Assembly (NCBI GenBank): GCA_000165345.1
Contig: CM000434.1
Location: 832,001-896,000 of the forward strand
Direction: 5' to 3'
DNA: 64,000 nucleotides
The position numbers and the translations under genes are program-made. How positions within the stretch are numbered: position 1 is the first letter of the stretch; every line of letters starts with the position of its first letter. The notes under the pieces are model-generated. The model saw only the letters and a list, made by a program, of their open reading frames with translations. It searched no databases and was not told the DNA's origin. Below are positions 488-43,716 of the stretch, piece by piece.

Positions 488-3220
488 TTAGTAGTTACTA
501 TATAAAAGTGGGTTAGATACAGTCTTTGCATTAATTGGAGTGAATCTGAACCAAAAAGGCATCCAAGGAGTAATTCCAAAAGAAGAAGAATCTAGTATTA
601 ATACATCAGCATGCGTCCTGACTTGTGTATGTGTGGGATTATAAAGAGGATTTACAAGCTCTTTGTGGAATATTATAGAGGAATTTAGAGAAAGAAGGGA
701 TTCAACTTGGCCATTATCCAGATTACCTTTAGAATTATTCTTAATAGAATACATTATTGTATCCCATAAAGAAACCGTCGAATTTCTAGAATCTATACAA
801 AATCTCTCATACTCATTATCACAATGAAAATTCCCAAATAAACTATTATTTAAGTGATCAGCAATAATAATTAATAGGTTTGGATGAAATTGGAATTCTG
901 TTGGAAACTGATTATAGCATTGGTAAACACAATCTAACCATTGGATAAATATTGGAGATCTTTCTGACTCGTTTTCTAAACAAGATTCTTTGCCAGGAGT
1001 ACCAGATCTGGAATGAAATTTGTGACCAGAAAGTATGAATTCTTTTTCTATAAGTGAAAGAAATCCCTGAATTGTTCTGTAATAAGGGTCCATACAAAGC
1101 ATTGCAAGTGCTGTTAGTTGTGAAGTTCTATCCCATCCATCACTACAATGTACCAAAACTCCTTTTTCCCTAATCAAATGATCAACAATCTTATTTGATG
1201 ATGCAAGGATCATACTAATTAAGTCATACCAGCCTGTTGAATCTATTTCTGAAATCAACTTTAATCCCGTTAAATTCTCTGAATTATTCATTCTATTCAA
1301 AGAAGCAAGTACTGATTGAGCTTGAACAGAACTGATATCTCCTTGGTTAAGTAAATTCATCACTTTCTCAAAATTAGCATTACCAACACTCAAATCTTGA
1401 TTTGATGAAGTTTTTTGAATTACTGAAACCAACTTATTCCAAGAATCACGAACCTTATGGATATTTTCAATATTCAAAAACTCTAATTTACAATTGGTAT
1501 AATGATCAATATTCTCAAATCCAGCTCCTGTTGCTTTATTAGCAAATGCATTCAATTTTGGTCTAGCATCCAGTATTGCAAAAGGTCTTTCTTCTTTTGG
1601 GTCTCCATTATTTTTGTAAAAGCTGGAAATGGTTGTTATCATCATCTCGTCCTCAATACATCTTTTAAACGCAGATTTTGGCTGACTAGACCTCCATAGA
1701 GTGCACTTTAAATCTGGGTTTGTCCAGCTTAAAATTGGTATTCTTCCCTTTGATCTAAATGCTGCTACTTTAATTAGTTGTGAATCGGATATGTTTTCAG
1801 GAACCACAATTATTCTTGGGTATGAAGAACAAAGCTCGAAGTTTTGATTCACATTTGTGAATCTTAAAGGAAATCTTGAAGTATTTTCATTAATTAAACC
1901 TGATGATATTGGAACTCCTTGTCTATTATATTCTTTCAAAATATCAAACTCAAAAATCCCATTAATTGAAGAAAATAATGGTAAACTCTCAAAATTCTCC
2001 CTAAAAGTATACGAAAACAAGTTTTTATGCAAAGTCTCGTTCAGAATATTTTGAATACTATTTTGAATTAGCTTTTTGTCTTGCTCAGAGCTTACTATTA
2101 GAATTTGGATCGATCTCAAATCTTTGGTTGAAATATCCAATGTGTAAGTACAACTTTTGGAATTCATATTTATTTGGCCATTCTGCCCAATTCCTGAACC
2201 TCCAATTGTTGTACCTAATGACCCTACTAGATTCAAGTTATTTCCAATATATTGTCCTGGAATTGTATGGTTATTACTGCCTTCTGTGTTTACTCCATTA
2301 TTATCATTACCAGAAATCAAAGAGCTAACCCCAATCTGAGTTATTGAATGAATTGGAATATGAAGAAAGCCTGATTTGTACATCCAAGATACTGAAAATC
2401 TTTTTACTATTGTCAATGCTTTATTGTTAATATTCTTTTGGAAAAGAGGAGCAAGAATTATTCTAAAGTTTGTCATAATGAAGGATCCAAAAATAGGACC
2501 TACCAGACCTTGAGCAGAAATTCCACACTCTTTACTAAATAACAACAACTTTTCACCAGGAAGAAGTATAATACTCATATTTTTAGTTATATTCTCCGCA
2601 TCAGCCTCACAAATTTCCAGACTTGTATTTGATATTGGACCTTTATTATTATGAATCTTGGAAAGGATCTCTGACCATCTGGATAGATCCTGAGCCTTTT
2701 GATTATTGCTATTACTCACTATCATATTCGAAGTGGTTTCTCTTAATGCATTCTGTATTTGAGAACTAATATTCTGCGTTACTGTGTTTGCTAAAGAAGA
2801 AAATAAACCTGAAACACTTGTGGATGTTCTTAAATTTGAACTGGATTTATTAATATTTGTTGTGGGGTTACTGATATTACTTCGGCTCTCTGGTACTATT
2901 GTTGGAGAAGCTAGCATAGGCTTAACTTCAACTGATCTTCCTTGTGTGCTTGGAAATGGATCAAATAATGAAAGATCTTCTAAAGTTTTATTCAACGGCT
3001 TTTTATCCATATCAAAGTTCTGATATTGTGAATTTAAGTTATTATTATCTCTACCTTCAAAACAATCATTCAAGGATGAAACCTGCTTGTATATTGAAAG
3101 AGGATCATTACCAGCTTCTAATGACTGAAGATTTATTTCTTCACTCCCCTTATACACTGAGTTATATAATCTATCAGTGGAGTCATTTTCAGTACTAATA
3201 CTTCCTAATTCCCCATTCAT
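488..3220 (-). CDS. Myotubularin-related phosphoinositide 3-phosphatase
   Basis: The CX5R active-site motif VHCSDGWDRTSQ is present, within a long Asn/Ser-rich N-terminal region. The track ORF starts on TTG at 3259; the first ATG (MNGELGS) is at 3220. Confidence 0.85.
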   Translation of the reverse strand: MNGELGSISTENDSTDRLYNSVYKGSEEINLQSLEAGNDPLSIYKQVSSLNDCFEGRDNNNLNSQYQNFDMDKKPLNKTLEDLSLFDPFPSTQGRSVEVKPMLASPTIVPESRSNISNPTTNINKSSSNLRTSTSVSGLFSSLANTVTQNISSQIQNALRETTSNMIVSNSNNQKAQDLSRWSEILSKIHNNKGPISNTSLEICEADAENITKNMSIILLPGEKLLLFSKECGISAQGLVGPIFGSFIMTNFRIILAPLFQKNINNKALTIVKRFSVSWMYKSGFLHIPIHSITQIGVSSLISGNDNNGVNTEGSNNHTIPGQYIGNNLNLVGSLGTTIGGSGIGQNGQINMNSKSCTYTLDISTKDLRSIQILIVSSEQDKKLIQNSIQNILNETLHKNLFSYTFRENFESLPLFSSINGIFEFDILKEYNRQGVPISSGLINENTSRFPLRFTNVNQNFELCSSYPRIIVVPENISDSQLIKVAAFRSKGRIPILSWTNPDLKCTLWRSSQPKSAFKRCIEDEMMITTISSFYKNNGDPKEERPFAILDARPKLNAFANKATGAGFENIDHYTNCKLEFLNIENIHKVRDSWNKLVSVIQKTSSNQDLSVGNANFEKVMNLLNQGDISSVQAQSVLASLNRMNNSENLTGLKLISEIDSTGWYDLISMILASSNKIVDHLIREKGVLVHCSDGWDRTSQLTALAMLCMDPYYRTIQGFLSLIEKEFILSGHKFHSRSGTPGKESCLENESERSPIFIQWLDCVYQCYNQFPTEFQFHPNLLIIIADHLNNSLFGNFHCDNEYERFCIDSRNSTVSLWDTIMYSIKNNSKGNLDNGQVESLLSLNSSIIFHKELVNPLYNPTHTQVRTHADVLILDSSSFGITPWMPFWFRFTPINAKTVSNPLLYSNY

Positions 3221-3500
3221 ATTGTATGAATTATTTAGAATTATAAATACCAATATCAATTACTTATTACAATAAGAAGCAACAAAAAGATTTCAAGATT
3301 TGGTGGATTCTTCTTTATCCTAAATTAGATTACTTTTCCACTCTTCTTATATCATTCAAGTCACCCTGAACCTCATCAAACAATATATTCAATTTCCCTA
3401 ACTCTTTAAATCATTCAGCAAATTCTTTAATCCGCACTTCATCTATTATTGAAAGTTATACTTTATATGTTAATACAAGAATATTATTAATTAACCATAT

Positions 3501-18600: not shown

Positions 18601-21600
18601 TTAAGTTGTAAACTTGAAAAAGGTTAATATTGCAAGTGGTGTAAAAATATAAAGACAAAACCCTGACAATTTTTCTGTTATATCAAATCCACAAATCTTA
18701 AGCAAAGGTGGTGTTGAGTTAATTACAAGTAGAACCTTCTCTATCACAATATAAATCCCTGCTCCTGGTGGAGTTCTATGTAAAATATTTTGCAACCAAG
18801 AATGAGTTCTTACTGATGTTCTGTTTATTTGATAAAGTAGCCTTATTACATATGAAGAAAAAATAAACATAACTATTCCCATTGTTAGAAAAATTGTCTC
18901 ACAATTTGAATAAGTATTGATCATATTATTTTCTGAAGATGATGGAATTGTTCCTTGATAAGATAAATATGAAGTTGCATATTGAGGAATTGTTAACATA
19001 AATGAAAGAGCTGAAGTTTTAATGTTTGATATACTTGCTAGATTTGAATATGTTAATGTTGAATGTGAAATTACTGGATTATTATCATTGTTATTCATAC
19101 CAGAACGTATTGATCTCATCAAATTTATATTATTTATAAAATTGTTGGTACCTTCTCCTGGAATATTAGTATAATAATGATCATTTAAATCTATCATTGA
19201 TGATATATCATTATATTTATTCATATTATAATTATCCTCATTATTTGAGTTTAAAATATAATCAATATTTGAAATTGAATCCATAAATTGATTTTTATTT
19301 GTTGAAAAAGATCCTGTCTTAAAAAAGTTATTCATAAAATGATCCCCTATTGATCTTGAATTTAACTCATTTAACAAATTTGTACTAATTCCTCCACCTA
19401 TAATATTTGGAGATGTAGTTAATATTCTTGAAATATCTTTATCAAAAGAACCTCTTACAATATTTGTTGAACCAGAAGCTGATAATCCATTCAAATTTTG
19501 ATTTGAACTTGGATTCTTACTCAACATTGTAGAAGATGAAAGATCTGAAACTCGATTATTATATATTCTATTCTTTTTGTTATATATTGCAACAAGCATA
19601 ATTTTCCCAATACAAAAGAAAATTAAAGTATTTATAGATACAGAAGCATTTAAGAAAGATGTCCAAAGCTTTGTATTCTTATAAAGGATATGTTGTATTG
19701 CACTTCTCCAATAACTAACAATTTGAATAAATTCTTGAACATTTGAATATTTAAATTGGGTTGGAATATGTTGAACTAATACAATACAAAGTCTTTTTCT
19801 TTGTTTCACAAAGAATAATAAAATAATCAAACCTTTCAAAATCTCAAAAATTAAGTTGGAAATCCAATATGTAAATATACATTCAATAATATAAACTGTT
19901 ATTGGAGATTTATTATAAAGGAAATATAAAGTTGAATCCCTTATTAAATATGAATTACTTTTAAATAATGTTATTGATATATTTGATGACATTGCCACAA
20001 TACAACTTATTATCTTGCAAGTAATAACAACATTAAAGTATTCATATGGAGTATTATAACTCACTTCATCCACTAATCGATATAATGGTTTATGAATCTG
20101 ATTATTAGTTACAACATTTCCAATATTTGTTCTAATATTATCACAACTTAAATTATCTTCTGCACTTGAAATAATGTTCCTAATTTTTCTTAATCTAATA
20201 GATCTTTTAACTTGGTTATTACTTTTTATGAAATTATTAAAGTTATCATTAATACTTGGAATTTTTTTCTGCCGTTTAGAATTAATATAAATACTTGTTT
20301 TACTTGATATGTTAGTATCACTTTGATATATTTGTTGTGTATTTTTTATTCTATTACAATAATTAGATAAAACTGACTTAAAACGTTTGTTTGCTGTGTT
20401 ACTTCGGGTTATTCTAATAGCTGGACCACTCAAAGTTGAACAAAATTTATCATTTACTAACCCAAAAGATGAAGATTTTGAAGAATTAATGTCAAAAGCA
20501 ATATTAATATCATTTGATTCAATTTTTGAATTATAATTTTGAATCCAAGGTGTTCTCAAATATTTATCTCCTGAGCTAGTATCATTAGAAATGGTTGAAG
20601 TAATTGATAATAAATCAGGCAAACAAATATATTCTCCTCCTGTTGAAGATTTTTTTACTTTAACTGAACTTTTCTTCATTACTTTCACTTTATTTACTTT
20701 AGAATGATTTGGATTTAATTTTATCCTATTGATATATTTATCATCATCATTTTTTTTTGTTATAGATTCTAAATCTGAACCAAGTGAATTTGTATCTTCA
20801 TTTGATTCACTCGAACTCAAATTCTCATCATCCGCAAAGTTATTATTTTCAAAATATTTTGAAGATGATGATGAATATGAGGTAAAACGAGAATAAGATC
20901 TCGATCCAAAAGTTGTCACATTTGAAGAAGAAACTCCCAATAAATTAAACCTTGCAGTATTTGGTGAAGAAAAATTAGATGAAGAATCTGGTTGAGAAGT
21001 TACTGAACAACCATTTACTTCATTTGAATAAGAATGACTGGCCTTTGTGTTAATGTAGTAATTACTAGTTGAAAAACTTGATCCTGATTGACTATTATTT
21101 AATTCTGATATAAAACTCCCGCCAAATCTATGATGCACTTGTGCATGTAACTCCGGTATTAAATCCATATGAGACTTATTTCTAGAACTTAATTTTTGAC
21201 TTGATAATTTTTGTGGAATCAACATATTTGGTGAAATTTCAATTTGATTGTCTAAGATTGGAACTTCACTATTAATTTTATTATTAGAATTCTTGTCAAT
21301 ATCACTTTTGTCGCAATCAAAGTCATAGTCATACTCATTATTATTATTATGACTGAAATAGTTGTTTTTAATTAAAGTACTTGAATTCATTGCACAGTTT
21401 AAAAGGTTTGAATATATATTTCTGATATTTTTTCTGTTTTCTACAGATTTCTTATAATAGTAATAATTATATAAGTAATATTCTTTAGAAAATCCACAAA
21501 AGTATTTGTTACAATAGTTGGAAACAAATTCATGTGTGTAATATATTCTAACACTTGAACAGAGTGTGGCTGTGATAATGACTCCAATTAAGAACCATAT

Positions 21601-24600: not shown

Positions 24601-25593
24601 CTTGTTATATGCCTTGATTTCTGGGAGTAATAGAGAAAAGATGACTTTTTTATCAAATCCTCTTTTAATTGCAGTAATAATACGAAGAATTTTATCCTTT
24701 GCATTGGCCAACTTTCTGTTAATTTCGGAAAGAGTTGAATTTAAAGGTAACTTTTCATTACTGGAAATATACTCGTTATCAATATTATTCCTCACAATAT
24801 ACTTGGAAAAGGAGGAATGTTCAATTAATTTATTTAATAACTTTTTGTTTCCTGACTCAATAATAAACGAAATCGCATCTTTTCCTTCAAGGGTTAAATC
24901 AGTCATAGATGCTCCGTAGTCCAAAAGCAACTCCAAGAATTCCTCGGTATTTGTTGACATTCCGTCTTTTAATAAGAAATAAAATGGGGTTAGCCCATTT
25001 CTGTCTGGAATATTTGGGTTTGATCCACATTTTAACAGAAAATGAGTCATCCTCAAATTCTTTGAGATTACACTGTAAAATAATGGAGACAAATCCCTAT
25101 TATCTGAGTAATCAATATTGGCTCCGTTAAGTAATAATAATGCCACTAATGGTAAGTTGCTTCTTTGAACAGCATTAATCAATGGACTGATTCCATTCGC
25201 ACCAACTATGTTTACATCTGCTCCATGTTCTATCAAATATAACGAGATAGTATAGGAAATATATCCATTTTGTCTAGTTGAAATGAGTAAGGCAGTTTCT
25301 CCTGTTGAATTAGAAATTGAATTAATATTATTAACGCATAACCTATCAAGCATAGCAGTGATTGCCTCAAGATCCTGTAGCCTAATACTTTCATGGAATT
25401 CATCCACTAAATCAAGACATTCTTCTGTGTAAGCAATATCTTTTTGGCATTCACAGTTATTTTTCTGGATTACATTTACCAATGAATCTGAAATACTGTT
25501 TAATGGGCAACCAATAGGAAATATTTGTTTGGTTCCTATGCAAAACAATATCTTAAACGTTAAAAGAAAAATTGAACATAGATAAATCTTCAT
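18601..25593 (-). CDS. Giant (2330-aa) ankyrin-repeat polytopic membrane protein
   Basis: Continuous ORF with verified ATG and signal-like N-terminus. About 4-5 ankyrin repeats lie at residues 100-260 (GETALLISTRQNGY...GADVN...GISPLINAV...). Long Asn/Ser low-complexity tracts are interspersed with three clusters of TM helices. Confidence 0.7.
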   Translation of the reverse strand: MKIYLCSIFLLTFKILFCIGTKQIFPIGCPLNSISDSLVNVIQKNNCECQKDIAYTEECLDLVDEFHESIRLQDLEAITAMLDRLCVNNINSISNSTGETALLISTRQNGYISYTISLYLIEHGADVNIVGANGISPLINAVQRSNLPLVALLLLNGANIDYSDNRDLSPLFYSVISKNLRMTHFLLKCGSNPNIPDRNGLTPFYFLLKDGMSTNTEEFLELLLDYGASMTDLTLEGKDAISFIIESGNKKLLNKLIEHSSFSKYIVRNNIDNEYISSNEKLPLNSTLSEINRKLANAKDKILRIITAIKRGFDKKVIFSLLLPEIKAYNKDICIVRDNEGRNLLWWMAHLGDEDLIRILVSFYKFQTNTGVLDFELCELHEPDIYGNLPIGHLIYKINYQEELMLKESRELNKENSLLYKPTISSKKSFKMFEEFDQINEFKFSGNNNNKLPKFQILEEMLMFQNPKTNTTLWYELAVSSGNDITGEHKIVEYLSSPAIDFHVSSFVVRCFCKPLKRYSIPTPRSIPIIGTSEYDNSISILSLLLLLNKNYTSKVVLQSILREAMLQSFWCIHALQHALITATILGKDDIIRNILLGRVQTLSEVLSSLDYSSEVSIQVASRLLGSLPPEFPNLDDLMAIPVTLLVRIIILSNGIEGEIREIDSNSETDSDETELDNLAKINSIEHNKIFQYINESLTASDSNGRDVNVSVKLENTTFNEKVKSSSSVEGSIYSNPEFSRDFFLQYQFDFTENNKEVEKQNELDEQNELEEQMNFVRSEMRRGYFEEDDHISQHDTSGEYESIFSNFDTIFSQKTKLFQNYTDKNDELVNLSKTKTEYRKTDSLGEAINLVKQLLSPEMTKFVRSSSFEHIIKILQNSTCNYPRNNEAELFLGKNVDFSKIQGLHTLKNRLENLNINDAIENTQSNNLNEKIQGILDDFDYFGQDNMETTPTHETGIDALYKKMDKKMGINTYLGNCLIELPNICNIMQIKEVLWVPMIFSQDHEHEFDPSSTLLIDSQCIGEKTECYIPSLNSDYQKIHLGYIPEIPAKANVTDLGPLISRSKLYGMMNKHPICDKSSSYTTFEELLAKKAKFITLLNTSPHNHIIPSAIRVSSAILLTSIIYILLWAIISYLKVFYIKNMINDWSKEKIKKKINSNKKTKSGLIRQNKKEKKRGISGVTNESQNSNFKSKSSIQLLTKNILKYTRKAFLNTLPYSVFRLRDFAEIFPVSASGKVIDSVLLALSLIFTSPWYIYKDNSLKENIKDKKSMNTIKTTKSNLLNAPMNYFKQKNSQKNTNLQSIIKYLFFFIQIISLIYLFTILFLISEYDYIWFLIGVIITATLCSSVRIYYTHEFVSNYCNKYFCGFSKEYYLYNYYYYKKSVENRKNIRNIYSNLLNCAMNSSTLIKNNYFSHNNNNEYDYDFDCDKSDIDKNSNNKINSEVPILDNQIEISPNMLIPQKLSSQKLSSRNKSHMDLIPELHAQVHHRFGGSFISELNNSQSGSSFSTSNYYINTKASHSYSNEVNGCSVTSQPDSSSNFSSPNTARFNLLGVSSSNVTTFGSRSYSRFTSYSSSSSKYFENNNFADDENLSSSESNEDTNSLGSDLESITKKNDDDKYINRIKLNPNHSKVNKVKVMKKSSVKVKKSSTGGEYICLPDLLSITSTISNDTSSGDKYLRTPWIQNYNSKIESNDINIAFDINSSKSSSFGLVNDKFCSTLSGPAIRITRSNTANKRFKSVLSNYCNRIKNTQQIYQSDTNISSKTSIYINSKRQKKIPSINDNFNNFIKSNNQVKRSIRLRKIRNIISSAEDNLSCDNIRTNIGNVVTNNQIHKPLYRLVDEVSYNTPYEYFNVVITCKIISCIVAMSSNISITLFKSNSYLIRDSTLYFLYNKSPITVYIIECIFTYWISNLIFEILKGLIILLFFVKQRKRLCIVLVQHIPTQFKYSNVQEFIQIVSYWRSAIQHILYKNTKLWTSFLNASVSINTLIFFCIGKIMLVAIYNKKNRIYNNRVSDLSSSTMLSKNPSSNQNLNGLSASGSTNIVRGSFDKDISRILTTSPNIIGGGISTNLLNELNSRSIGDHFMNNFFKTGSFSTNKNQFMDSISNIDYILNSNNEDNYNMNKYNDISSMIDLNDHYYTNIPGEGTNNFINNINLMRSIRSGMNNNDNNPVISHSTLTYSNLASISNIKTSALSFMLTIPQYATSYLSYQGTIPSSSENNMINTYSNCETIFLTMGIVMFIFSSYVIRLLYQINRTSVRTHSWLQNILHRTPPGAGIYIVIEKVLLVINSTPPLLKICGFDITEKLSGFCLYIFTPLAILTFFKFTT

Positions 25594-36500: not shown

Positions 36501-36906
36501 TCAATTTTTTCAAAAAAAAATAGTGGGTATGACATCATAAATAGAAGCAGTTGCATGCGAAAGAAAAGTATTAAATTTTACATAAATTCGAGAGTTGTAT
36601 TATAATCATAATAAAAACAAAATAAAGATAGTAAATGTAAGGAAAGAATAAAAAGAAAGAATACAAAAAGAATATGATTAACAAAAAAAGTTAAAACTAA
36701 AGAATAAAGTTAAATATATTTGAGATTTACAGATATTTAATAACGTAATTATAAGTTAAATTGAAGATAGTATACATGGACATTAATAGGATTGAAATAA
36801 GATAGAAAAGTTAAAATACGAGAGAAAAAACTTAATATAAAGGGAACAAAAGCTAAGAGGCAATTAATATAGCAAAAGAAAAAGAAAATTCAATTAATTG
36901 TTTGAA

Positions 36907-39900
36907 ATGTTTACAGGGAGTGACTTGAAAAACTTAGTATTGAAAACTCTATTATTATTGCTACTGGAATACCTTATCATCAACTTTCCAGGAGTCTCAT
37001 CAATTGATGAAAAGGTTCAGGAAAGGAAAGATGATCCAGTAGCACATATGGACCCTGCCCCACCAATACTATTTAAGGAAATGAAAAGTCCAATTGTAGG
37101 AGTGGGTGATATTTGTTTTGGAAACAACTGTAACTATTACCAAGAAAGTAAAGAAAATAGTCCATCCAAAGACAGAGAAAGCTATCATTCAGTTGGTTCC
37201 AAAGTTACAAGGTATATATGTATATTATTATCAGAAAATACTTTTACTAGGGAAAAAGAGGCAGATTTGTTTTTTGAAAGATTAAATGAATATACAGAAA
37301 CTTCAGAATTGCCATTTTCATATGTTGAATTTTACGAGAAACTTGGAGTTTTTGTAATTGATGTTAGATCCAGTATTAAAGAGTATGAAGAACGCAGTAT
37401 ATTTCCCTTGGCTGAAGGTTTGAAACTTATCAAAAAGTTAGATATTTTAAACAAGGCTGACTGTACTAAAGATTCTCTTTTAAGTGAACAATCGGTATTT
37501 ACAAGTGGAAATGAAGATAAATCTACTGAGAATTACAGTAATAGCTATAAGTGGAATTGGAGCAGTATTCCTAATAATTTTGTAAATTTTAATCGAATCT
37601 TGAAATCCGAAGAGTCTCAAGGAAATATTACGAATAACAATCAAGGCACAGAATATTTAACAGATGAAGCAAAGCTATACAAAGAGTTGGATGGTTACTT
37701 TTTGAAAAAGTTCAATGAAGCATCTAATCTACTTAATAAACTAAATATGTTCTCTTCCCCATCCTCTTCATCATCAAATTTCAATAATCCTACTGTTTCA
37801 TCAACATCATTTTCCGGAGGGAGGCAATCTTCTCTTTGGAATGCACTCAACTTTTTATCCAGTTTCTCAAATAAGGAAGAAAAGTCTAGATCTACGCCAA
37901 TCCAGGAAATTGAAGATCCAATTTTTGGAAAAATGGACCCAACAGATGGTAATTCTAAATTAACAATATCTCCACTATACCTTCTTGGGATGAATCTCAA
38001 AGGAAAAAACATTACAGAGCTATCTCAAAAGTTCAAAAATCAAACATCTCCTATCGTTCCTGTAGATATGTCTAGAGAAGATATTAGCTTGGACAATGAT
38101 CTTGCAATGAATATAGCAACAGTAATCTTCAAAGGAATGAGTGATTCCGCTGCAAAGCTTCCACCTCCTTTTGGGAACCCTGCAGTCAAAAATGAGCAAA
38201 AGTTTCCAGAATATAATTACAAAAACCATATAAATTATCTTGAAACAAATGCAAATAATAACTATTATAATTCCCCATCAATCTCTAACTGGAGTTATAA
38301 ACCCATACCACAGGGTAACAATAATGTAATTGGTGGATATGAAAATGACCAAAGCCAACTCAATATTCAAAGTGATCACTTTAAAGGAGGAAGTTTTCAT
38401 CCAAGTTCAAGTAATAATGCTATCAATACAATTGATAATTCCATTATTGGATTTAATAGTGTTTCTCAAGTTAACTCAAATAGTAATTCTAATAAAGTAG
38501 GAGTTCATTCTCAATCTGGTTCTGGCTTAGCTCCAAATATTTTTGAATCAATAGATACATGGGGAAAACAGAGCTCAGCTTATCAATCAACTTCTTCTTC
38601 CGCCTCCCCTCCATCATATTATGCAACAAATGGTATTAAAACTATTAATCCAAATCAAGTGACTTCTAATGGAAAGAGTAATCCTGATTTAAAAGTACCA
38701 ACCATTAATTCTCCATCAACTTCAGAATGGATGAGAAAGACTATTTCAAAGCAAAATGAGGGTGGGATAAAGCAACCGTCATTTATTAACAGTCAAAATA
38801 ATCAAACAGAAATTAATAAATTTGCAAATAATATGAACCAAAATACCCCCCCAATTGTTAATTCAAATGGTAATCACTTTAATTCTCCATTTTCACAGCT
38901 TTCAAAGTTTTCTAACAATCCATTCCATGGAAATTCTGCCGGAACAACATTTGTCAAAATGAATGGTAGTGTTTTTGATGATGATAATGATATCACTTCT
39001 TTCCATCCTGAAGGATTTATCAATAAACTTCCAGAACATGTACAAAAGAATATGACTCAATCTCAAAGAGACAAAATTAACTTAATAAATGCATTTATTG
39101 GTACTGGATTTGATACAATTCTTCAGATGAATAATATAGATTCTAGTTCAAGTTATGGTAATCAGAATAATGATTTCTTTAGAAGTTCTCCTCCAAAAAG
39201 AAGATTATTTGAGATTGACTCTTCAACAAGAGGAAACAAAATGGTGATTGATGAAAACATGAAAGACCCGAATTTAAGTGATCAATCAAATAAAGAATAT
39301 GAAATGTATGCCAAATTGCTGAGTAATATTGATACGAACCAAGGTCAAGATACTGCAATGGCCTATGTGACAGGATGTGATTGTGATAGATTTCCTGAAG
39401 GAGTTGCATGTCCCATGGTGCTTTCAGGAGAAGCGAATATTGAATGTATTGGGTATAAAGTTTGGAATAGTGCAAGAAAAGGTGCTCCATTGAGTGAGAT
39501 AGCTTCAGCAATAGATTCTGCAATTACTTCTAAAGCAAGAAATATTATTTTGCCTTTAAAGTTTGATACAAAGACAATTGAAGAAAATCGAGCAGCTCCA
39601 AGAATTTTGAGGCACATCATGAGAAGAACTTCAAGAGAGAATGGAATACTATTTGCCTTACCAACAGGAAATAATGGTAAGCAGGAGTTGGATGGAAGCT
39701 TAGACTTTCCTTGCGACGATTTGACAGGAATGTACGCTTTTTGTGTGGGTTCAATTAACAACAAAAATGGAATGCCTTCGAGTTTTTCCAATGTTCCTCA
39801 GTTAAATAATGCAATCTATGCTAATGGTGAGGATGTTGAATCAATTGGAATAAATCAACAAAGACGATTATTTTCTGGTACCGGTATTGCTTTAGCTCAA

Positions 39901-42900
39901 TCAATTGGTGCTTTAAATATTATTCAAGGTATTACAAAGGATAAAACGAGCTCATTTGACCAGCTTGCTATCCTGTACAGTGCCCCTAAAAAACTTCCAT
40001 CAAGGAATTTTTTGGAGCAGCTTTTTGCAAACTCGAGTCCGATTACATTCAAGCCTCAACAGCAACAACAACAATTCCAGAAACAAAGCTCTAGGAACGA
40101 GACAGGTTCTTCAGATCCTGTTTTAATGTTTGGTATGGGATCTGGAAACAATACAAATGGTGCTTTAGGATCAGTATCTCATGAAAGGATCATGAATTCG
40201 AGTCTAATGAGTGGAAATAGAGACAATGATTTAGATGCAATAATGGCCAGGATTGAGAGCATTGAAAAAAGTCTTGCAAAGTCAGGTTTAGATGGTGGCA
40301 CCGTTTTCAAGGGAGAATTTCCAGTTGGTGGTCCATTTTCTTCACCTTCTGATTCCTCTACTTTCTCATCCTCTTCCACTACCACAACTACTACAACCAC
40401 CAGTCCAGTCAGCACTACAACTTCCAATGCTTCTACTCTAACCAATATAACCACAGAAATTCCTCAAATATTAAATTATACAAACATAAGTAGTTCCAGT
40501 ACATCCACTCCTTCTATTAGTCTCAACACTTCTACCCCTAACATCGTAACAACTCTTCCCTCTAACATCACAACAAACCCTCCTTCCAGCATCACGACAA
40601 ACCCTCCTTCCAGTATCAAAACAAACCCTCCTTCCAGCATCGTAACGACACCTTCCTCCAACATCGCAACAAATACTCCTTCCAATATCACTACTACCAC
40701 CACCACCAGTCCTTCCAGAACTCCCAGAGCCTCTAATCCTCCTCTTACGGAAAACAAAGAAGAAGAATATGGTCACTATAAGGAATCTAACTATAGTCCA
40801 GAAATAATAGGAGTTGTTCTAGATCCAAAGGAAGTAACTGAAGTCTCCAGATTAGTTCATTCCAGTAATGAACATTATAATGAGTACTATGATAGATATG
40901 GAAATCATGATACTGTTGATCACGAATATGAAAATGACGATGGGTACCGACAATACTATATTGATGGAAATGAAGACAAGAATCACAACTACGGCAATAC
41001 ATTTAATTCAGAGGAAAATATGTCAAGAAATCTTTGTTATGAAGAGGAAACCAGGTTTTACAGTCCCTTAGAAATGGCTATACCCGTAGATAATATTGAG
41101 CAGTGTATATTATCCTGTAGTAATACCCCAGACTGTAGATACTATTCGTATGGAGCATTCCTTAAAGGCCCTGGAAGCATTATTGGGACATGTATATTAA
41201 TGCCTGATAAACAAGGATCGGTAGCTTTACCAAACTTCCAATCTGGAGCTCTAGGATGCCCAGTTTCTGCTAGTATTGCTTATGCTCAGGCTATGGAAGA
41301 AAGACTAATACAAGGTATTAGTAATGCAAATGAAAATAGTCAAAAAAGTTCTTCTGCTCAAGTTAATAACAATTTAAACTCGGATTGGCCAGGCATACTT
41401 TCCACCTCTACTGTAGCAGTTAAAAGTATGAGTGGATTCTTATCTAGATTTCCTCTCAACGATATACTTCAAACAAGTATTTCCTTATATAATTCAGGAT
41501 TTCTCGATCAAAAAGGTGCTTTAAGACCAAGTGGAGCTTTTGAAAAGCAAAGTATATTACCCCCTCCTGGAGTTGGATCTCCACATGTAGTATGTACCCT
41601 ACAAGGTATGCAATGTTGTGTCCCACAGAAATCTGCTAAAGGATGGAGAAAAAAGCCACCAAGTTTTCTTAGAGTTGAAGATCCTTCATGCGAAGCTATT
41701 TATGTCTCAAAAACAGATATGTTCTGTGCAACCACATCATTATATGATAACCAGGATATCTCTTCATCAGGATATAATTCACTTGATGATTTTAGAAGCC
41801 AACCCTCATTTTCATCAAATTCTTATAGTACTAATCCAAAACCTTCAGGAAGCTGTGGAATGGTTATAATTGAAACAAGTGAGCATCTTATTTTTCAAAA
41901 CACTCTAAAAATGCCTTCTAAAGAGATGAATAATGCATTATGTGAATGTAAGCTGAATAAAAGAGATAAAAGCATACATGGATCTGGTACTTGGGAATAC
42001 TCAGTACAAGCAGTACAAGCTGCAATGAGTCGCAAAGTTGAAGGAGATCAACTTTCTTCTGGAGTTGCTCAAGCTTTAGCTTGGGTAGAAGCAGTTGGGA
42101 ATGATCCAAATCCAGCAGTGAATGGACTTGGTGAGCTTATTTCCCAAGTTGCTCAAAGACCAAATTCAGATGTTGAGTTAATTACTCAGATACCTGCAAT
42201 TAGTCAAAATGCTGTTTCTAATATGCTTTACAATCAACAACAACAACAGATTGAAGAGCAAGAACAAATTATTAAGAAACAACAATCTATTCAGCAATAC
42301 AATAATATGAGATATTTATTATCTCAAAATGAAACTGATACTAATAACGCTAACACTCAAAGTCAATCAGATCAATGTGTAACAAGTTGGCCAGAAAAAT
42401 GTCAAATTTGGAAATCTAAATGTGAGGATAACTTAATATATGGTTATAAAAATCCTCAATGCGTACCATTGACTATTTTAGAGAATGGATGTCCAATGAA
42501 ACAGGTTGGATTCAAGGTGAATCAAATAAATCCAGGAATTTTGAGCTTCAGTTTTAAACCTATGAGATTTTCAGATAATTCACCATTCAGAATTGCTTGT
42601 CAGTTTTCACTCATCAAATGTACTCTAGCAAATATTAAAAGCAAATGTAAATCAAATGGTACTAATAACTTTAAGAAACCAAAGAATTTGAACGGAGACG
42701 ATGAAAACAATGCAATTAATAACATTAGAAAACATTTAAATAATCATAAAAATCAAAATAATAATAAAAATAACAACTTATTTCACAGAAAAGACACTAA
42801 TGATAAAAGTAAAAATAATGAACTAAAACATTTATTCAAAATTCCAATGAACTATCTTCCGTATATTCCAAAAGATACAGGAGAAAGTGACGAGAAATCT

Positions 42901-43716
42901 GAGAATATTGTAGCAAAGTATATTAGAGTCCATTTTCCTCAAGCAGGAAACTTTTCAAATATGACAATGGTAAAACTATTAAACAAAGAGACTAAGAGAG
43001 AATTTGCAGCAAAAATGATTAATGAGGAGGAAATACCAAAAAACAATACTATTGAGGATGTATTAATTGACGAGAATTCAAATTTTGAGTATCTTGGTAA
43101 GGTAGAGATAGTTACTCAAGATGAAAATGATGAGGACTACTCAACTATTAAATATGAAAATACATCAATTATTTCTGATAGAATGGGAGTTGATATTGAA
43201 AATAAGGATGTTATTTTCAGTCATCTTATAAAGTCAAGCAACGAAAGTAAAATATACAAAGAACCTTTGCTTTTAGATAAATATCAACCAGATTTTACAG
43301 GTGAATCATTTCCTGAATTCAAGATGGAGAAAGTTGTAATTCCTAATGAAAAAAGTACTGAAAATGAAATATCTCAGAGTTTTAATAAAGATTACAACTC
43401 TGAATCAAAATTAGGAACAAACGAAAAAAAAGAAAATTGGAATAATCACCAAAATGAAAATGGAGATTTGGATGAATATGAAGACTTATACTACTATGGA
43501 TTTGAAAATGATTATGGAAGCAATCATAGCAAGAATCAAATTAGTGACTTTATTCCTTTCATTTCAACCAATAACAAGAAAAACAAATGGGAAGTTCAAA
43601 TAAACAAATCTTCTGGAGATAATAGAAATATACAATATAAAATAACCAAAAAGAATATTCTTTTATTTATATTTGCTTGTTATACTCCTATAATTCTCAT
43701 GTTTGGTTTTATTTAA
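36907..43716 (+). CDS. Giant secreted mucin-like glycoprotein (2270 aa) with PAN/apple domain, Thr/Ser-rich tandem repeats and hydrophobic C-terminus (GPI-anchor signal or TM)
   Basis: The track ORF starts on TTG at 36898; the first ATG at 36907 gives signal peptide MFTGSDLKNLVLKTLLLLLLEYLIINFPGVSS. Poly-Thr/Ser tracts (TTTTTTTSPVSTTTSNASTLTNITT..., NPPSSITT repeats) are present. The PAN/apple-like Cys pattern CILSCSNTPDCRYYSY...GTCILMP lies at about 41100-41210. Several Cys-rich modules lie downstream. The C-terminus is ILLFIFACYTPIILMFGFI. Confidence 0.8.
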   Translation: MFTGSDLKNLVLKTLLLLLLEYLIINFPGVSSIDEKVQERKDDPVAHMDPAPPILFKEMKSPIVGVGDICFGNNCNYYQESKENSPSKDRESYHSVGSKVTRYICILLSENTFTREKEADLFFERLNEYTETSELPFSYVEFYEKLGVFVIDVRSSIKEYEERSIFPLAEGLKLIKKLDILNKADCTKDSLLSEQSVFTSGNEDKSTENYSNSYKWNWSSIPNNFVNFNRILKSEESQGNITNNNQGTEYLTDEAKLYKELDGYFLKKFNEASNLLNKLNMFSSPSSSSSNFNNPTVSSTSFSGGRQSSLWNALNFLSSFSNKEEKSRSTPIQEIEDPIFGKMDPTDGNSKLTISPLYLLGMNLKGKNITELSQKFKNQTSPIVPVDMSREDISLDNDLAMNIATVIFKGMSDSAAKLPPPFGNPAVKNEQKFPEYNYKNHINYLETNANNNYYNSPSISNWSYKPIPQGNNNVIGGYENDQSQLNIQSDHFKGGSFHPSSSNNAINTIDNSIIGFNSVSQVNSNSNSNKVGVHSQSGSGLAPNIFESIDTWGKQSSAYQSTSSSASPPSYYATNGIKTINPNQVTSNGKSNPDLKVPTINSPSTSEWMRKTISKQNEGGIKQPSFINSQNNQTEINKFANNMNQNTPPIVNSNGNHFNSPFSQLSKFSNNPFHGNSAGTTFVKMNGSVFDDDNDITSFHPEGFINKLPEHVQKNMTQSQRDKINLINAFIGTGFDTILQMNNIDSSSSYGNQNNDFFRSSPPKRRLFEIDSSTRGNKMVIDENMKDPNLSDQSNKEYEMYAKLLSNIDTNQGQDTAMAYVTGCDCDRFPEGVACPMVLSGEANIECIGYKVWNSARKGAPLSEIASAIDSAITSKARNIILPLKFDTKTIEENRAAPRILRHIMRRTSRENGILFALPTGNNGKQELDGSLDFPCDDLTGMYAFCVGSINNKNGMPSSFSNVPQLNNAIYANGEDVESIGINQQRRLFSGTGIALAQSIGALNIIQGITKDKTSSFDQLAILYSAPKKLPSRNFLEQLFANSSPITFKPQQQQQQFQKQSSRNETGSSDPVLMFGMGSGNNTNGALGSVSHERIMNSSLMSGNRDNDLDAIMARIESIEKSLAKSGLDGGTVFKGEFPVGGPFSSPSDSSTFSSSSTTTTTTTTSPVSTTTSNASTLTNITTEIPQILNYTNISSSSTSTPSISLNTSTPNIVTTLPSNITTNPPSSITTNPPSSIKTNPPSSIVTTPSSNIATNTPSNITTTTTTSPSRTPRASNPPLTENKEEEYGHYKESNYSPEIIGVVLDPKEVTEVSRLVHSSNEHYNEYYDRYGNHDTVDHEYENDDGYRQYYIDGNEDKNHNYGNTFNSEENMSRNLCYEEETRFYSPLEMAIPVDNIEQCILSCSNTPDCRYYSYGAFLKGPGSIIGTCILMPDKQGSVALPNFQSGALGCPVSASIAYAQAMEERLIQGISNANENSQKSSSAQVNNNLNSDWPGILSTSTVAVKSMSGFLSRFPLNDILQTSISLYNSGFLDQKGALRPSGAFEKQSILPPPGVGSPHVVCTLQGMQCCVPQKSAKGWRKKPPSFLRVEDPSCEAIYVSKTDMFCATTSLYDNQDISSSGYNSLDDFRSQPSFSSNSYSTNPKPSGSCGMVIIETSEHLIFQNTLKMPSKEMNNALCECKLNKRDKSIHGSGTWEYSVQAVQAAMSRKVEGDQLSSGVAQALAWVEAVGNDPNPAVNGLGELISQVAQRPNSDVELITQIPAISQNAVSNMLYNQQQQQIEEQEQIIKKQQSIQQYNNMRYLLSQNETDTNNANTQSQSDQCVTSWPEKCQIWKSKCEDNLIYGYKNPQCVPLTILENGCPMKQVGFKVNQINPGILSFSFKPMRFSDNSPFRIACQFSLIKCTLANIKSKCKSNGTNNFKKPKNLNGDDENNAINNIRKHLNNHKNQNNNKNNNLFHRKDTNDKSKNNELKHLFKIPMNYLPYIPKDTGESDEKSENIVAKYIRVHFPQAGNFSNMTMVKLLNKETKREFAAKMINEEEIPKNNTIEDVLIDENSNFEYLGKVEIVTQDENDEDYSTIKYENTSIISDRMGVDIENKDVIFSHLIKSSNESKIYKEPLLLDKYQPDFTGESFPEFKMEKVVIPNEKSTENEISQSFNKDYNSESKLGTNEKKENWNNHQNENGDLDEYEDLYYYGFENDYGSNHSKNQISDFIPFISTNNKKNKWEVQINKSSGDNRNIQYKITKKNILLFIFACYTPIILMFGFI
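40549..40692 (+). repeat. In-frame 24-nt tandem repeat, about 6 copies (unit acaaaccctccttccagcatcacg, encoding TNPPSSI[T/K/V]), degenerating at both ends
   Basis: Three near-perfect copies at 40573-40644 are flanked by diverged copies. Confidence 0.8.

Follow-up and report, generated by a model that had tools for sequence, protein, structure and literature searches.

Ankyrin repeats placed ahead of hydrophobic helices occur in several described families of membrane proteins. In the TRP channels (TRPA, TRPV, TRPC and TRPN) they lie N-terminal to a multi-helix membrane region, and in the ANK-DHHC palmitoyltransferases (yeast Akr1, zDHHC13/17) they are followed by several transmembrane (TM) helices, while the plant ANK-TM proteins of the ACD6/ITN1 type and Kidins220/ARMS offer further points of comparison. 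Another arrangement is found in alpha-latrotoxin, a secreted ankyrin-repeat protein that acts outside the cytosol of the producing cell. Within Cryptosporidium, the sushi and ankyrin protein cgd4_2420 has been listed as a hyperLOPIT rhoptry candidate (PMC13432881). The gene considered here, cgd6_3650 of Cryptosporidium parvum, is located on the minus strand at 18601..25593 of a 64,000-nt window (GCA_000165345.1, CM000434.1, positions 832,001-896,000 of the forward strand), to which all nucleotide coordinates refer. Its open reading frame (ORF) is real and under purifying selection over the full length, and the ankyrin-repeat domain is the sole recognisable module of a product which otherwise consists of conserved blocks, three clusters of predicted TM helices and very long linkers.

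A single constrained reading frame

The ORF comprises 2330 codons and a stop, begins with ATG and constitutes the complete coding sequence of cgd6_3650. The initial annotation had described it as single, uninterrupted and among the longest of the window. It is the longest, with a 2272-aa ORF at 36898-43716 as the runner-up, and only one of its 2331 codons (the terminal one) is a stop, compared to 109-310 stops in each of the five alternative frames. At the given base composition (72% A+T), 2330 consecutive codons would be free of stops with a probability of about 1e-91. The encoded protein has the same sequence as EAK89983.1 of C. parvum Iowa II and QOY41251.1 (CPATCC_002925) of Iowa-ATCC, encoded on chromosome 6 (1.33 Mb), and the exact, full-length match to EAK89983.1 places it in the cgd6_3650 orthologue group. 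The gene identifier and its description are those of Table S1 of PMC3542205, in which the row sits between cgd6_3610 (WD40) and cgd6_3660; the neighbouring ORFs in the window (WD40, SF-assemblin and thioredoxin-domain) agree with this gene order. The cgd6_3650 primers of Mauzy et al. 2012 (PMC3305300) have one match each in the window and delimit 20819-20971, corresponding to residues 1541-1592. The architecture has been present in public annotation since 2004, to which the present analysis adds nothing, and a signal peptide was annotated independently by the sequence depositors. In a full-text search of the literature neither cgd6_3650 nor CPATCC_002925 was named in any main text, cgd6_3650 was absent from the supplements of PMC10233709 and PMC13419397, and the term 'ankyrin' gave no match in the supplements of PMC13241007.

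The protein is divided as follows, from the N- to the C-terminus, with regional ratios of non-synonymous to synonymous substitution (dN/dS) computed against C. meleagridis DNA:

25531..25593, minus strand: predicted signal peptide, residues 1-21; hydrophobic core 3-21, cleavage context C-I-G followed by T
24394..25530, minus strand: Cys-containing cap with five canonical and two to three degenerate ankyrin-like helix pairs, residues 22-400; dN/dS 0.07
23614..24243, minus strand: conserved domain of unassigned fold, predicted all-helical, residues 451-660; from alignment and AlphaFold2
22444..23613, minus strand: variable acidic/polar region, mostly of low model confidence, residues 661-1050; one small conserved island at 851-900
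22255..22443, minus strand: conserved juxtamembrane segment, residues 1051-1113; invariant C1076 and the motif ...LLAKKA.IITLLN.S.H..IIP
21538..22254, minus strand: TM cluster 1, residues 1114-1352; TM 1114-1137, very basic loop 1138-1236, hairpin 1305-1327 / 1332-1352
21394..21537, minus strand: Tyr/Cys-rich conserved segment (CNKYFCGFSKEYYLYNYYYYKK), residues 1353-1400; partly deleted in C. andersoni
20194..21393, minus strand: variable linker 1, Ser/Asn/Lys-rich, predicted coil, residues 1401-1800; dN/dS 0.30, containing the amplicon of the reverse transcription quantitative PCR (RT-qPCR)
19564..20193, minus strand: TM cluster 2, residues 1801-2010; marginal helix 1856-1877, hydrophobic 1897-1929, basic loop, TM 1985-2005; dN/dS 0.03
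18919..19563, minus strand: variable linker 2, Asn/Ser-rich, residues 2011-2225; dN/dS 0.29, about 70 residues in C. andersoni
18604..18918, minus strand: TM cluster 3 and C-terminus, residues 2226-2330; TM 2232-2252, HRTPPGAGIYIVIEKV.LVI.STPP, terminal helix 2308-2327; dN/dS 0.014

Full-length, collinear orthologues were recovered from C. hominis (97% identity to the C. parvum protein; XP_667229.1), C. tyzzeri (96%), C. meleagridis (91%), C. ubiquitum (70%), C. canis (65%), one further assembly (64%) and C. xiaoi (43-46%), and the gastric species C. andersoni carries an orthologue of 1924 aa (cand_014620 / OII77646.1). The group shares the whole architecture, i.e. the signal-like N-terminus, the ankyrin repeats, the domain at 451-660, the three TM clusters and the C-terminal HRTPPGAGIYIVIEKV motif, and the gene order around cgd6_3650 is the same in C. 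meleagridis. In eight independently sequenced Cryptosporidium species the gene forms one uninterrupted frame, with linker lengths varying in frame. The C. felis gene model was left out beyond residue ~986: as deposited it matches only residues 1-447 and 513-986, after which the translation is out-of-frame nonsense rich in Pro, Arg and Gly, a sign that the assembly or the model contains frameshift errors.

Conservation is high at residues 101-400, 451-650, 851-900, 1051-1150, 1201-1400, 1801-2000 and 2251-2330, and low at 401-450, 651-850, 901-1050, 1401-1800 and 2001-2250. The whole-protein dN/dS is 0.21, with values of 0.25-0.30 in the linkers, 0.145 at residues 451-650, 0.07 in the ankyrin region, 0.03 at residues 1801-2000 and 0.014 at residues 2226-2330. 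Constraint is strongest in the ankyrin domain, in TM cluster 2 including its basic loop and in the last 105 residues. The cluster 2 loop is near-invariant (FVKQRKRLC..LVQHIP.QF.YSN.QEFIQ..SYWRS..QH.LYKNTKLWT). The fastest-evolving region is the basic loop at residues 1151-1200 (21994-22143, minus strand), which is almost neutral (dN/dS 0.81); its positive charge is retained in most species.

Two short motifs stand out in the alignment. A Tyr run, YYLYNYYYYKK (residues 1373-1383; 21445-21477, minus strand), lies C-terminal to the CNKYFCGF motif and is retained in the six aligned orthologues of the intestinal lineage, being mostly deleted in C. andersoni. The motif HRTPPGAGIYIVIEKV(L/V)LVI(N/S)STPP (residues 2272-2297; 18703-18780, minus strand) is invariant in seven of seven species, C. 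andersoni included. It is a 17-residue hydrophobic stretch with Pro-Pro at each side, too polar for a TM helix (predicted free energy of insertion, dG, ~8), and could form a re-entrant or interfacial element.

The linkers had been described as very long and Asn/Ser-rich, which their composition confirms (Ser 32% in residues 1501-1600; Asn 23% in 2101-2200). Such low-complexity stretches between the clusters, together with the lack of any inter-cluster contacts in the (low-confidence) AlphaFold2 predictions, would be in keeping with a fusion of two or three neighbouring genes created by assembly or annotation (the initial annotation had named an assembly fusion of two genes as an outcome that would refute it), or with a precursor whose halves are expressed separately. 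However, the single frame is found in eight independently sequenced species with differing linker lengths, including the 1924-aa protein of C. andersoni, the linkers are not neutral (dN/dS 0.25-0.30), and a stop-free frame of this length would hardly arise by chance (~1e-91). The RT-qPCR amplicon also falls within the middle linker. Since the frame is kept across species, and given the dN/dS pattern and the position of the amplicon inside linker 1, a fusion artefact is ruled out for practical purposes, and we regard this explanation, in any of its forms, as highly improbable. The mature product may be cleaved into pieces post-translationally.

The ankyrin head and the predicted membrane topology

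About five ankyrin repeats had been proposed within the first 260 residues, a description borne out by both profile matches and structure prediction. Pfam Ank_2 matches residues 72-163 (E 5.6e-18; 65.7 bits, cut-off 27.3) and Ank residues 133-165 (46.4 bits, cut-off 21.1), with Ank_3 at residues 169-195 and matches to Ank_4 and Ank_5, all exceeding the curated cut-offs; a further weak repeat was seen at ~308-362 in the Pfam scan. Ankyrin families are likewise matched by the C. andersoni and C. xiaoi orthologues, which places the protein in the ankyrin-repeat superfamily at the domain level. An AlphaFold2 model of residues 22-1112 had a mean predicted local distance difference test (pLDDT) score of 42.5 and was moderately confident (60-87) only at ~42-261 and ~301-361. 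It contains five helix-pair repeats (101-122, 137-155, 170-188, 203-225 and 240-258), after which degenerate pairs are seen as far as ~416. The canonical repeats number about five and span residues ~98-261, with degenerate ones continuing to ~400. A Foldseek search of this N-terminal model against the PDB returned ankyrin proteins only. Ahead of the repeats, the cap carries the invariant cysteines C29, C49 and C59. Behind them, residues 451-660 show 42-78% identity to C. andersoni in 50-residue windows, with the maximum of 78% at 551-600, and contain two invariant sequons (N470 and N551).

The N-terminus, previously noted as signal-like, is hydrophobic at residues 3-21 (Kyte-Doolittle 2.04, Hessa dG 0.19). 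A cleaved signal peptide fits because small residues occupy positions -3 and -1 (C-I-G before T). The position of this segment is kept in all species while its sequence is not conserved, a pattern typical of signal peptides, and this too argues for such a reading. Downstream, the hydrophobic helices of seven species were scored on the Hessa scale; their number is an estimate, as is the cleavage site. Six robust helices (1114-1137, 1305-1327, 1332-1352, 1911-1929, 1985-2005 and 2232-2252) and three marginal ones (1856-1877, 1897-1913 and 2308-2327) give a total of six to nine in three clusters, the final one at the extreme C-terminus, in agreement with the earlier description of at least three hydrophobic clusters ending there. 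Three other segments, 638-657 (dG 3.1-9.7), 1237-1255 and 2279-2296, were not membrane-spanning by the Hessa score.

The charge distribution suggests how these helices would be oriented. Over the 15 residues flanking TM1 on either side, Lys plus Arg averages 0.4 on the N side compared to 2.6 on the C side, and the loop after TM1 is strongly Lys/Arg-rich in most species. By the positive-inside rule, the first ~1090 residues would therefore be lumenal or extracellular and the loop cytosolic. Similarly, the hairpin 1305-1327 / 1332-1352, with its acidic EYDY turn and basic outer flanks, would place linker 1 in the cytosol. Nine sequons are conserved in six or more of the seven species, and six of these, including the invariant N470 and N551, lie in the N-terminal 1113 residues together with twelve invariant Cys; these features are compatible with a location in the secretory pathway, although they do not prove it. 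The ankyrin domain is thus probably exposed on the non-cytosolic side, opposite to that in TRP channels.

A different topology would follow if the N-terminal segment were not a cleaved signal peptide, or if the protein were inserted in the reverse direction. In that case the repeats would face the cytosol, like those of ANK-DHHC enzymes and TRP channels, and would draw partners from there to an internal membrane. In its favour, the great majority of ankyrin repeats are found in the cytosol or nucleus, the N-terminal segment has a marginal Hessa dG in some species (2.4-3.5), and the N-out topology comes from hydrophobicity and charge scoring. Set against this are the hydrophobic N-terminus at the same position in all species without conserved sequence, the charge bias at TM1 and the Lys-rich loop, which put the N-terminal side outside the cytosol, the invariant Cys and sequons of the N-terminal domain, and the depositors' independent signal-peptide annotation. 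A cytosolic ankyrin head is accordingly considered rather doubtful, at roughly one-in-five strength in our judgement.

Comparison with known ankyrin families and search for relatives

The initial annotation had likened the architecture to that of TRP-like channels and transporter regulators, a likeness which the comparison did not support: no Ion_trans, PKD-channel or transporter domain was detected, the helices are non-contiguous and the predicted side of the ankyrin domain is the non-cytosolic one. Sequence similarity to TRP channels is confined to the ankyrin repeats. Neither Ion_trans (PF00520) nor PKD_channel (PF08016) was found by Pfam in the whole protein, its segments, two orthologues or the TM blocks, and TRP membership was rejected. 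Whereas S1-S6 of TRP channels are contiguous and followed by a TRP box, the cgd6_3650 product has three clusters separated by linkers of ~450 and ~225 residues and lacks an EWKFAR motif; and while the N-terminal ankyrin repeats of TRP channels are cytosolic and not preceded by a signal peptide, here they follow a signal-like segment and are predicted to be non-cytosolic.

The other families fared no better. Membership of the ANK-DHHC palmitoyltransferases, which are much smaller and without a signal peptide, was rejected, as there was no Pfam match to PF01529 and no DH[HY]C motif in the product. The plant ANK-TM type was rejected on the absence of a PGG domain (PF13962) and of a PGG motif, and Kidins220/ARMS on the absence of the KAP-family P-loop NTPase (PF07693), Kidins220 proteins being matched via the ankyrin repeats alone. 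Alpha-latrotoxin was among the Foldseek matches of the N-terminal model (rank 27), again through the ankyrin repeats alone. With alpha-latrotoxin and cgd4_2420 the protein would share a signal peptide before the ankyrin repeats and their exposure outside the cytosol of the producer; these two are, however, soluble and secreted, whereas the cgd6_3650 product is anchored by its six to nine predicted TM helices, and the homology is limited to the repeats. Family membership is therefore restricted to the ankyrin-repeat superfamily, at the domain level, and to its own orthologue group.

In a search for relatives outside the genus, residues 1201-2330 were used as a HMMER profile against 1.84 billion representative proteins, with no word index; the three matches were all from Cryptosporidium, and relatives more remote than ~E 1e-3 would have escaped this search. 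In the full-length search each non-Cryptosporidium match covered at most 15% of the query and consisted of ankyrin domains only. Neither residues 261-1100 nor the 1201-2330 profile matched a PDB sequence even at E up to 10, and ankyrin families were the only credible Pfam matches, whether the query was the full protein, isolated segments (E up to 10), the linker-free TM blocks or the C. xiaoi and C. andersoni orthologues. Neither of two metagenome scans gave a match, the first of them having used poor low-complexity patterns, and hhalign detected no internal duplication among the conserved blocks. Alignment-mode homologue searches (TM blocks; residues 440-1112) missed even known orthologues and are not counted as negative evidence. 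An AlphaFold2 model of the membrane half (C. canis orthologue, residues 1117-2316, five sequences) had a mean pLDDT of 28 and was unusable. As far as these sequence searches reach, the product exists only in the genus Cryptosporidium and no known family covers its non-ankyrin 85%. The earlier suggestion of a lineage-specific protein of no recognised family is thereby upheld for that part, and the orthologues sought in other apicomplexans reduce to Cryptosporidium alone.

The same data bear on whether the protein could be an ion channel or transporter, TRP-like in that the conserved helices would form a pore or translocation path under the control of the ankyrin domain. Such a function would be suited by the combination of ankyrin repeats with a polytopic region, by invariant charged residues inside the predicted helices of cluster 2, by the invariant Pro-flanked HRTPPGAGIYIVIEKV.LVI.STPP as a possible re-entrant loop and by the extreme constraint on clusters 2 and 3 (dN/dS 0.03 and 0.014). 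However, three divergent orthologues and the TM blocks matched no Ion_trans, PKD-channel or other transporter Pfam family at E up to 10, no PDB sequence was matched, the helices are interrupted by linkers of ~450 and ~225 residues, the blocks lack internal duplication and the predicted side of the ankyrin domain is opposite to that in TRP channels. With nothing positive in its favour overall, a channel or transporter, although the chief alternative to the preferred role, is judged unlikely.

Proposed role, expression and neighbouring genes

The reading we prefer is that cgd6_3650 encodes a genus-specific, polytopic, membrane-anchored protein-binding scaffold or receptor. A cleaved signal peptide would send the product into the endoplasmic reticulum, where the first ~1090 residues, comprising the Cys cap, the ankyrin repeats and the helical domain 451-660, would remain lumenal or extracellular. 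TM1 would cross from outside to inside, leaving the basic loop on the cytosolic side, where linker 1 would also lie. The protein may then act as an anchored scaffold or receptor of the secretory pathway or the parasite surface, with the ankyrin head binding a partner located outside the cytosol of the parasite, the compact, conserved helices and the loops of clusters 2 and 3 (FVKQRKRLC...LYKNTKLWT and HRTPPGAGIYIVIEKV.LVI.STPP) forming a functional membrane core, and the disordered linkers serving as spacers or regulatory segments. A precedent for secreted ankyrin proteins in Cryptosporidium is given by cgd4_2420 (PMC13432881).

Several points weigh against this proposal. The orientation derives solely from a simple analysis of hydrophobicity and charge. 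As ankyrin repeats normally act in the cytosol or nucleus, an extracytosolic ankyrin domain would be unusual. Both AlphaFold2 models are poor (mean pLDDT 28 and 42.5), and give no information on the fold of 85% of the sequence. Within predicted helices there are conserved charged or polar residues (E1902, E1917, K1920 and K1996), and these, together with the Pro-flanked motif (E2285/K2286, scored as non-TM), would also fit a transporter or channel core. The scaffold or receptor role is itself deduced only from the usual behaviour of ankyrin repeats, and the literature searched contained no localisation, proteomic or knockout data for cgd6_3650. Taken as a whole the proposal is therefore held with middling confidence, the architecture being of high certainty and the role of low certainty.

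Published expression data place the transcript after invasion. In oocysts cgd6_3650 falls in class L0, 'lowly or unexpressed', with a signal of 0.543 (PMC3542205), and in infected HCT-8 cells 18S-normalised RT-qPCR values started from about zero at 2 h, increased between 6 and 24 h and reached maxima at 36 h and 72 h (PMC3305300). The low oocyst signal combined with the rise after invasion indicates that the mRNA is made during intracellular development and is not stored in the oocyst or sporozoite.

The gene is flanked by a convergent ORF at 16627-18372 (plus strand), 228 bp from the cgd6_3650 stop codon, whose 581-aa product has a thioredoxin domain and matches OST3/OST6 weakly. By gene order this should be cgd6_3640, listed as a protein disulfide isomerase (PMC3542205), and the same neighbour is present in C. 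meleagridis. Beyond it, the ORF at 13474-15486 (minus strand) encodes 670 aa with weak ankyrin matches, Ank_3 being just above the cut-off (25.1 bits) and others just below. Its position in the gene order (3610 WD40, 3620 SF-assemblin, 3640 thioredoxin-domain, 3650) suggests cgd6_3630, which is listed as the validated rhoptry-bulb protein CpROP6 (PMC13432881). If this identification is right, it would be a second signal-pathway ankyrin protein two genes from cgd6_3650; BLASTP detected no paralogy between the two. The second giant ORF of the window (2272 aa; 36898-43716, plus strand) matched no Pfam family at E <= 1e-5. Three housekeeping genes are also recognisable:

488-3259, minus strand: myotubularin-like phosphatase
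56235-57791, plus strand: hexokinase
59142-60545, minus strand: eukaryotic aspartyl protease

In a more far-reaching and clearly speculative version, to which we attach low probability, cgd6_3650 would found a Cryptosporidium-only family of polytopic membrane proteins whose ankyrin domain is displayed non-cytosolically. While the parasite grows inside the cell, the protein would operate where it meets its host, at the surface, the feeder organelle or the vacuole membrane, either as an anchor whose ankyrin head grips a host or interface protein, or with clusters 2 and 3 as a new transport or channel core. This version is entertained because the protein is genus-restricted, strongly constrained and predicted to be N-out, and its transcripts rise after invasion. 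Despite the very small genome of Cryptosporidium, the 7-kb gene has been kept in every species examined, with near-invariant membrane blocks, which suggests a probably essential, parasite-specific role. If it is truly a surface or secretory protein with an exposed binding domain, the cgd6_3650 product would be a reasonable candidate for host-interface biology and as a drug or antibody target.

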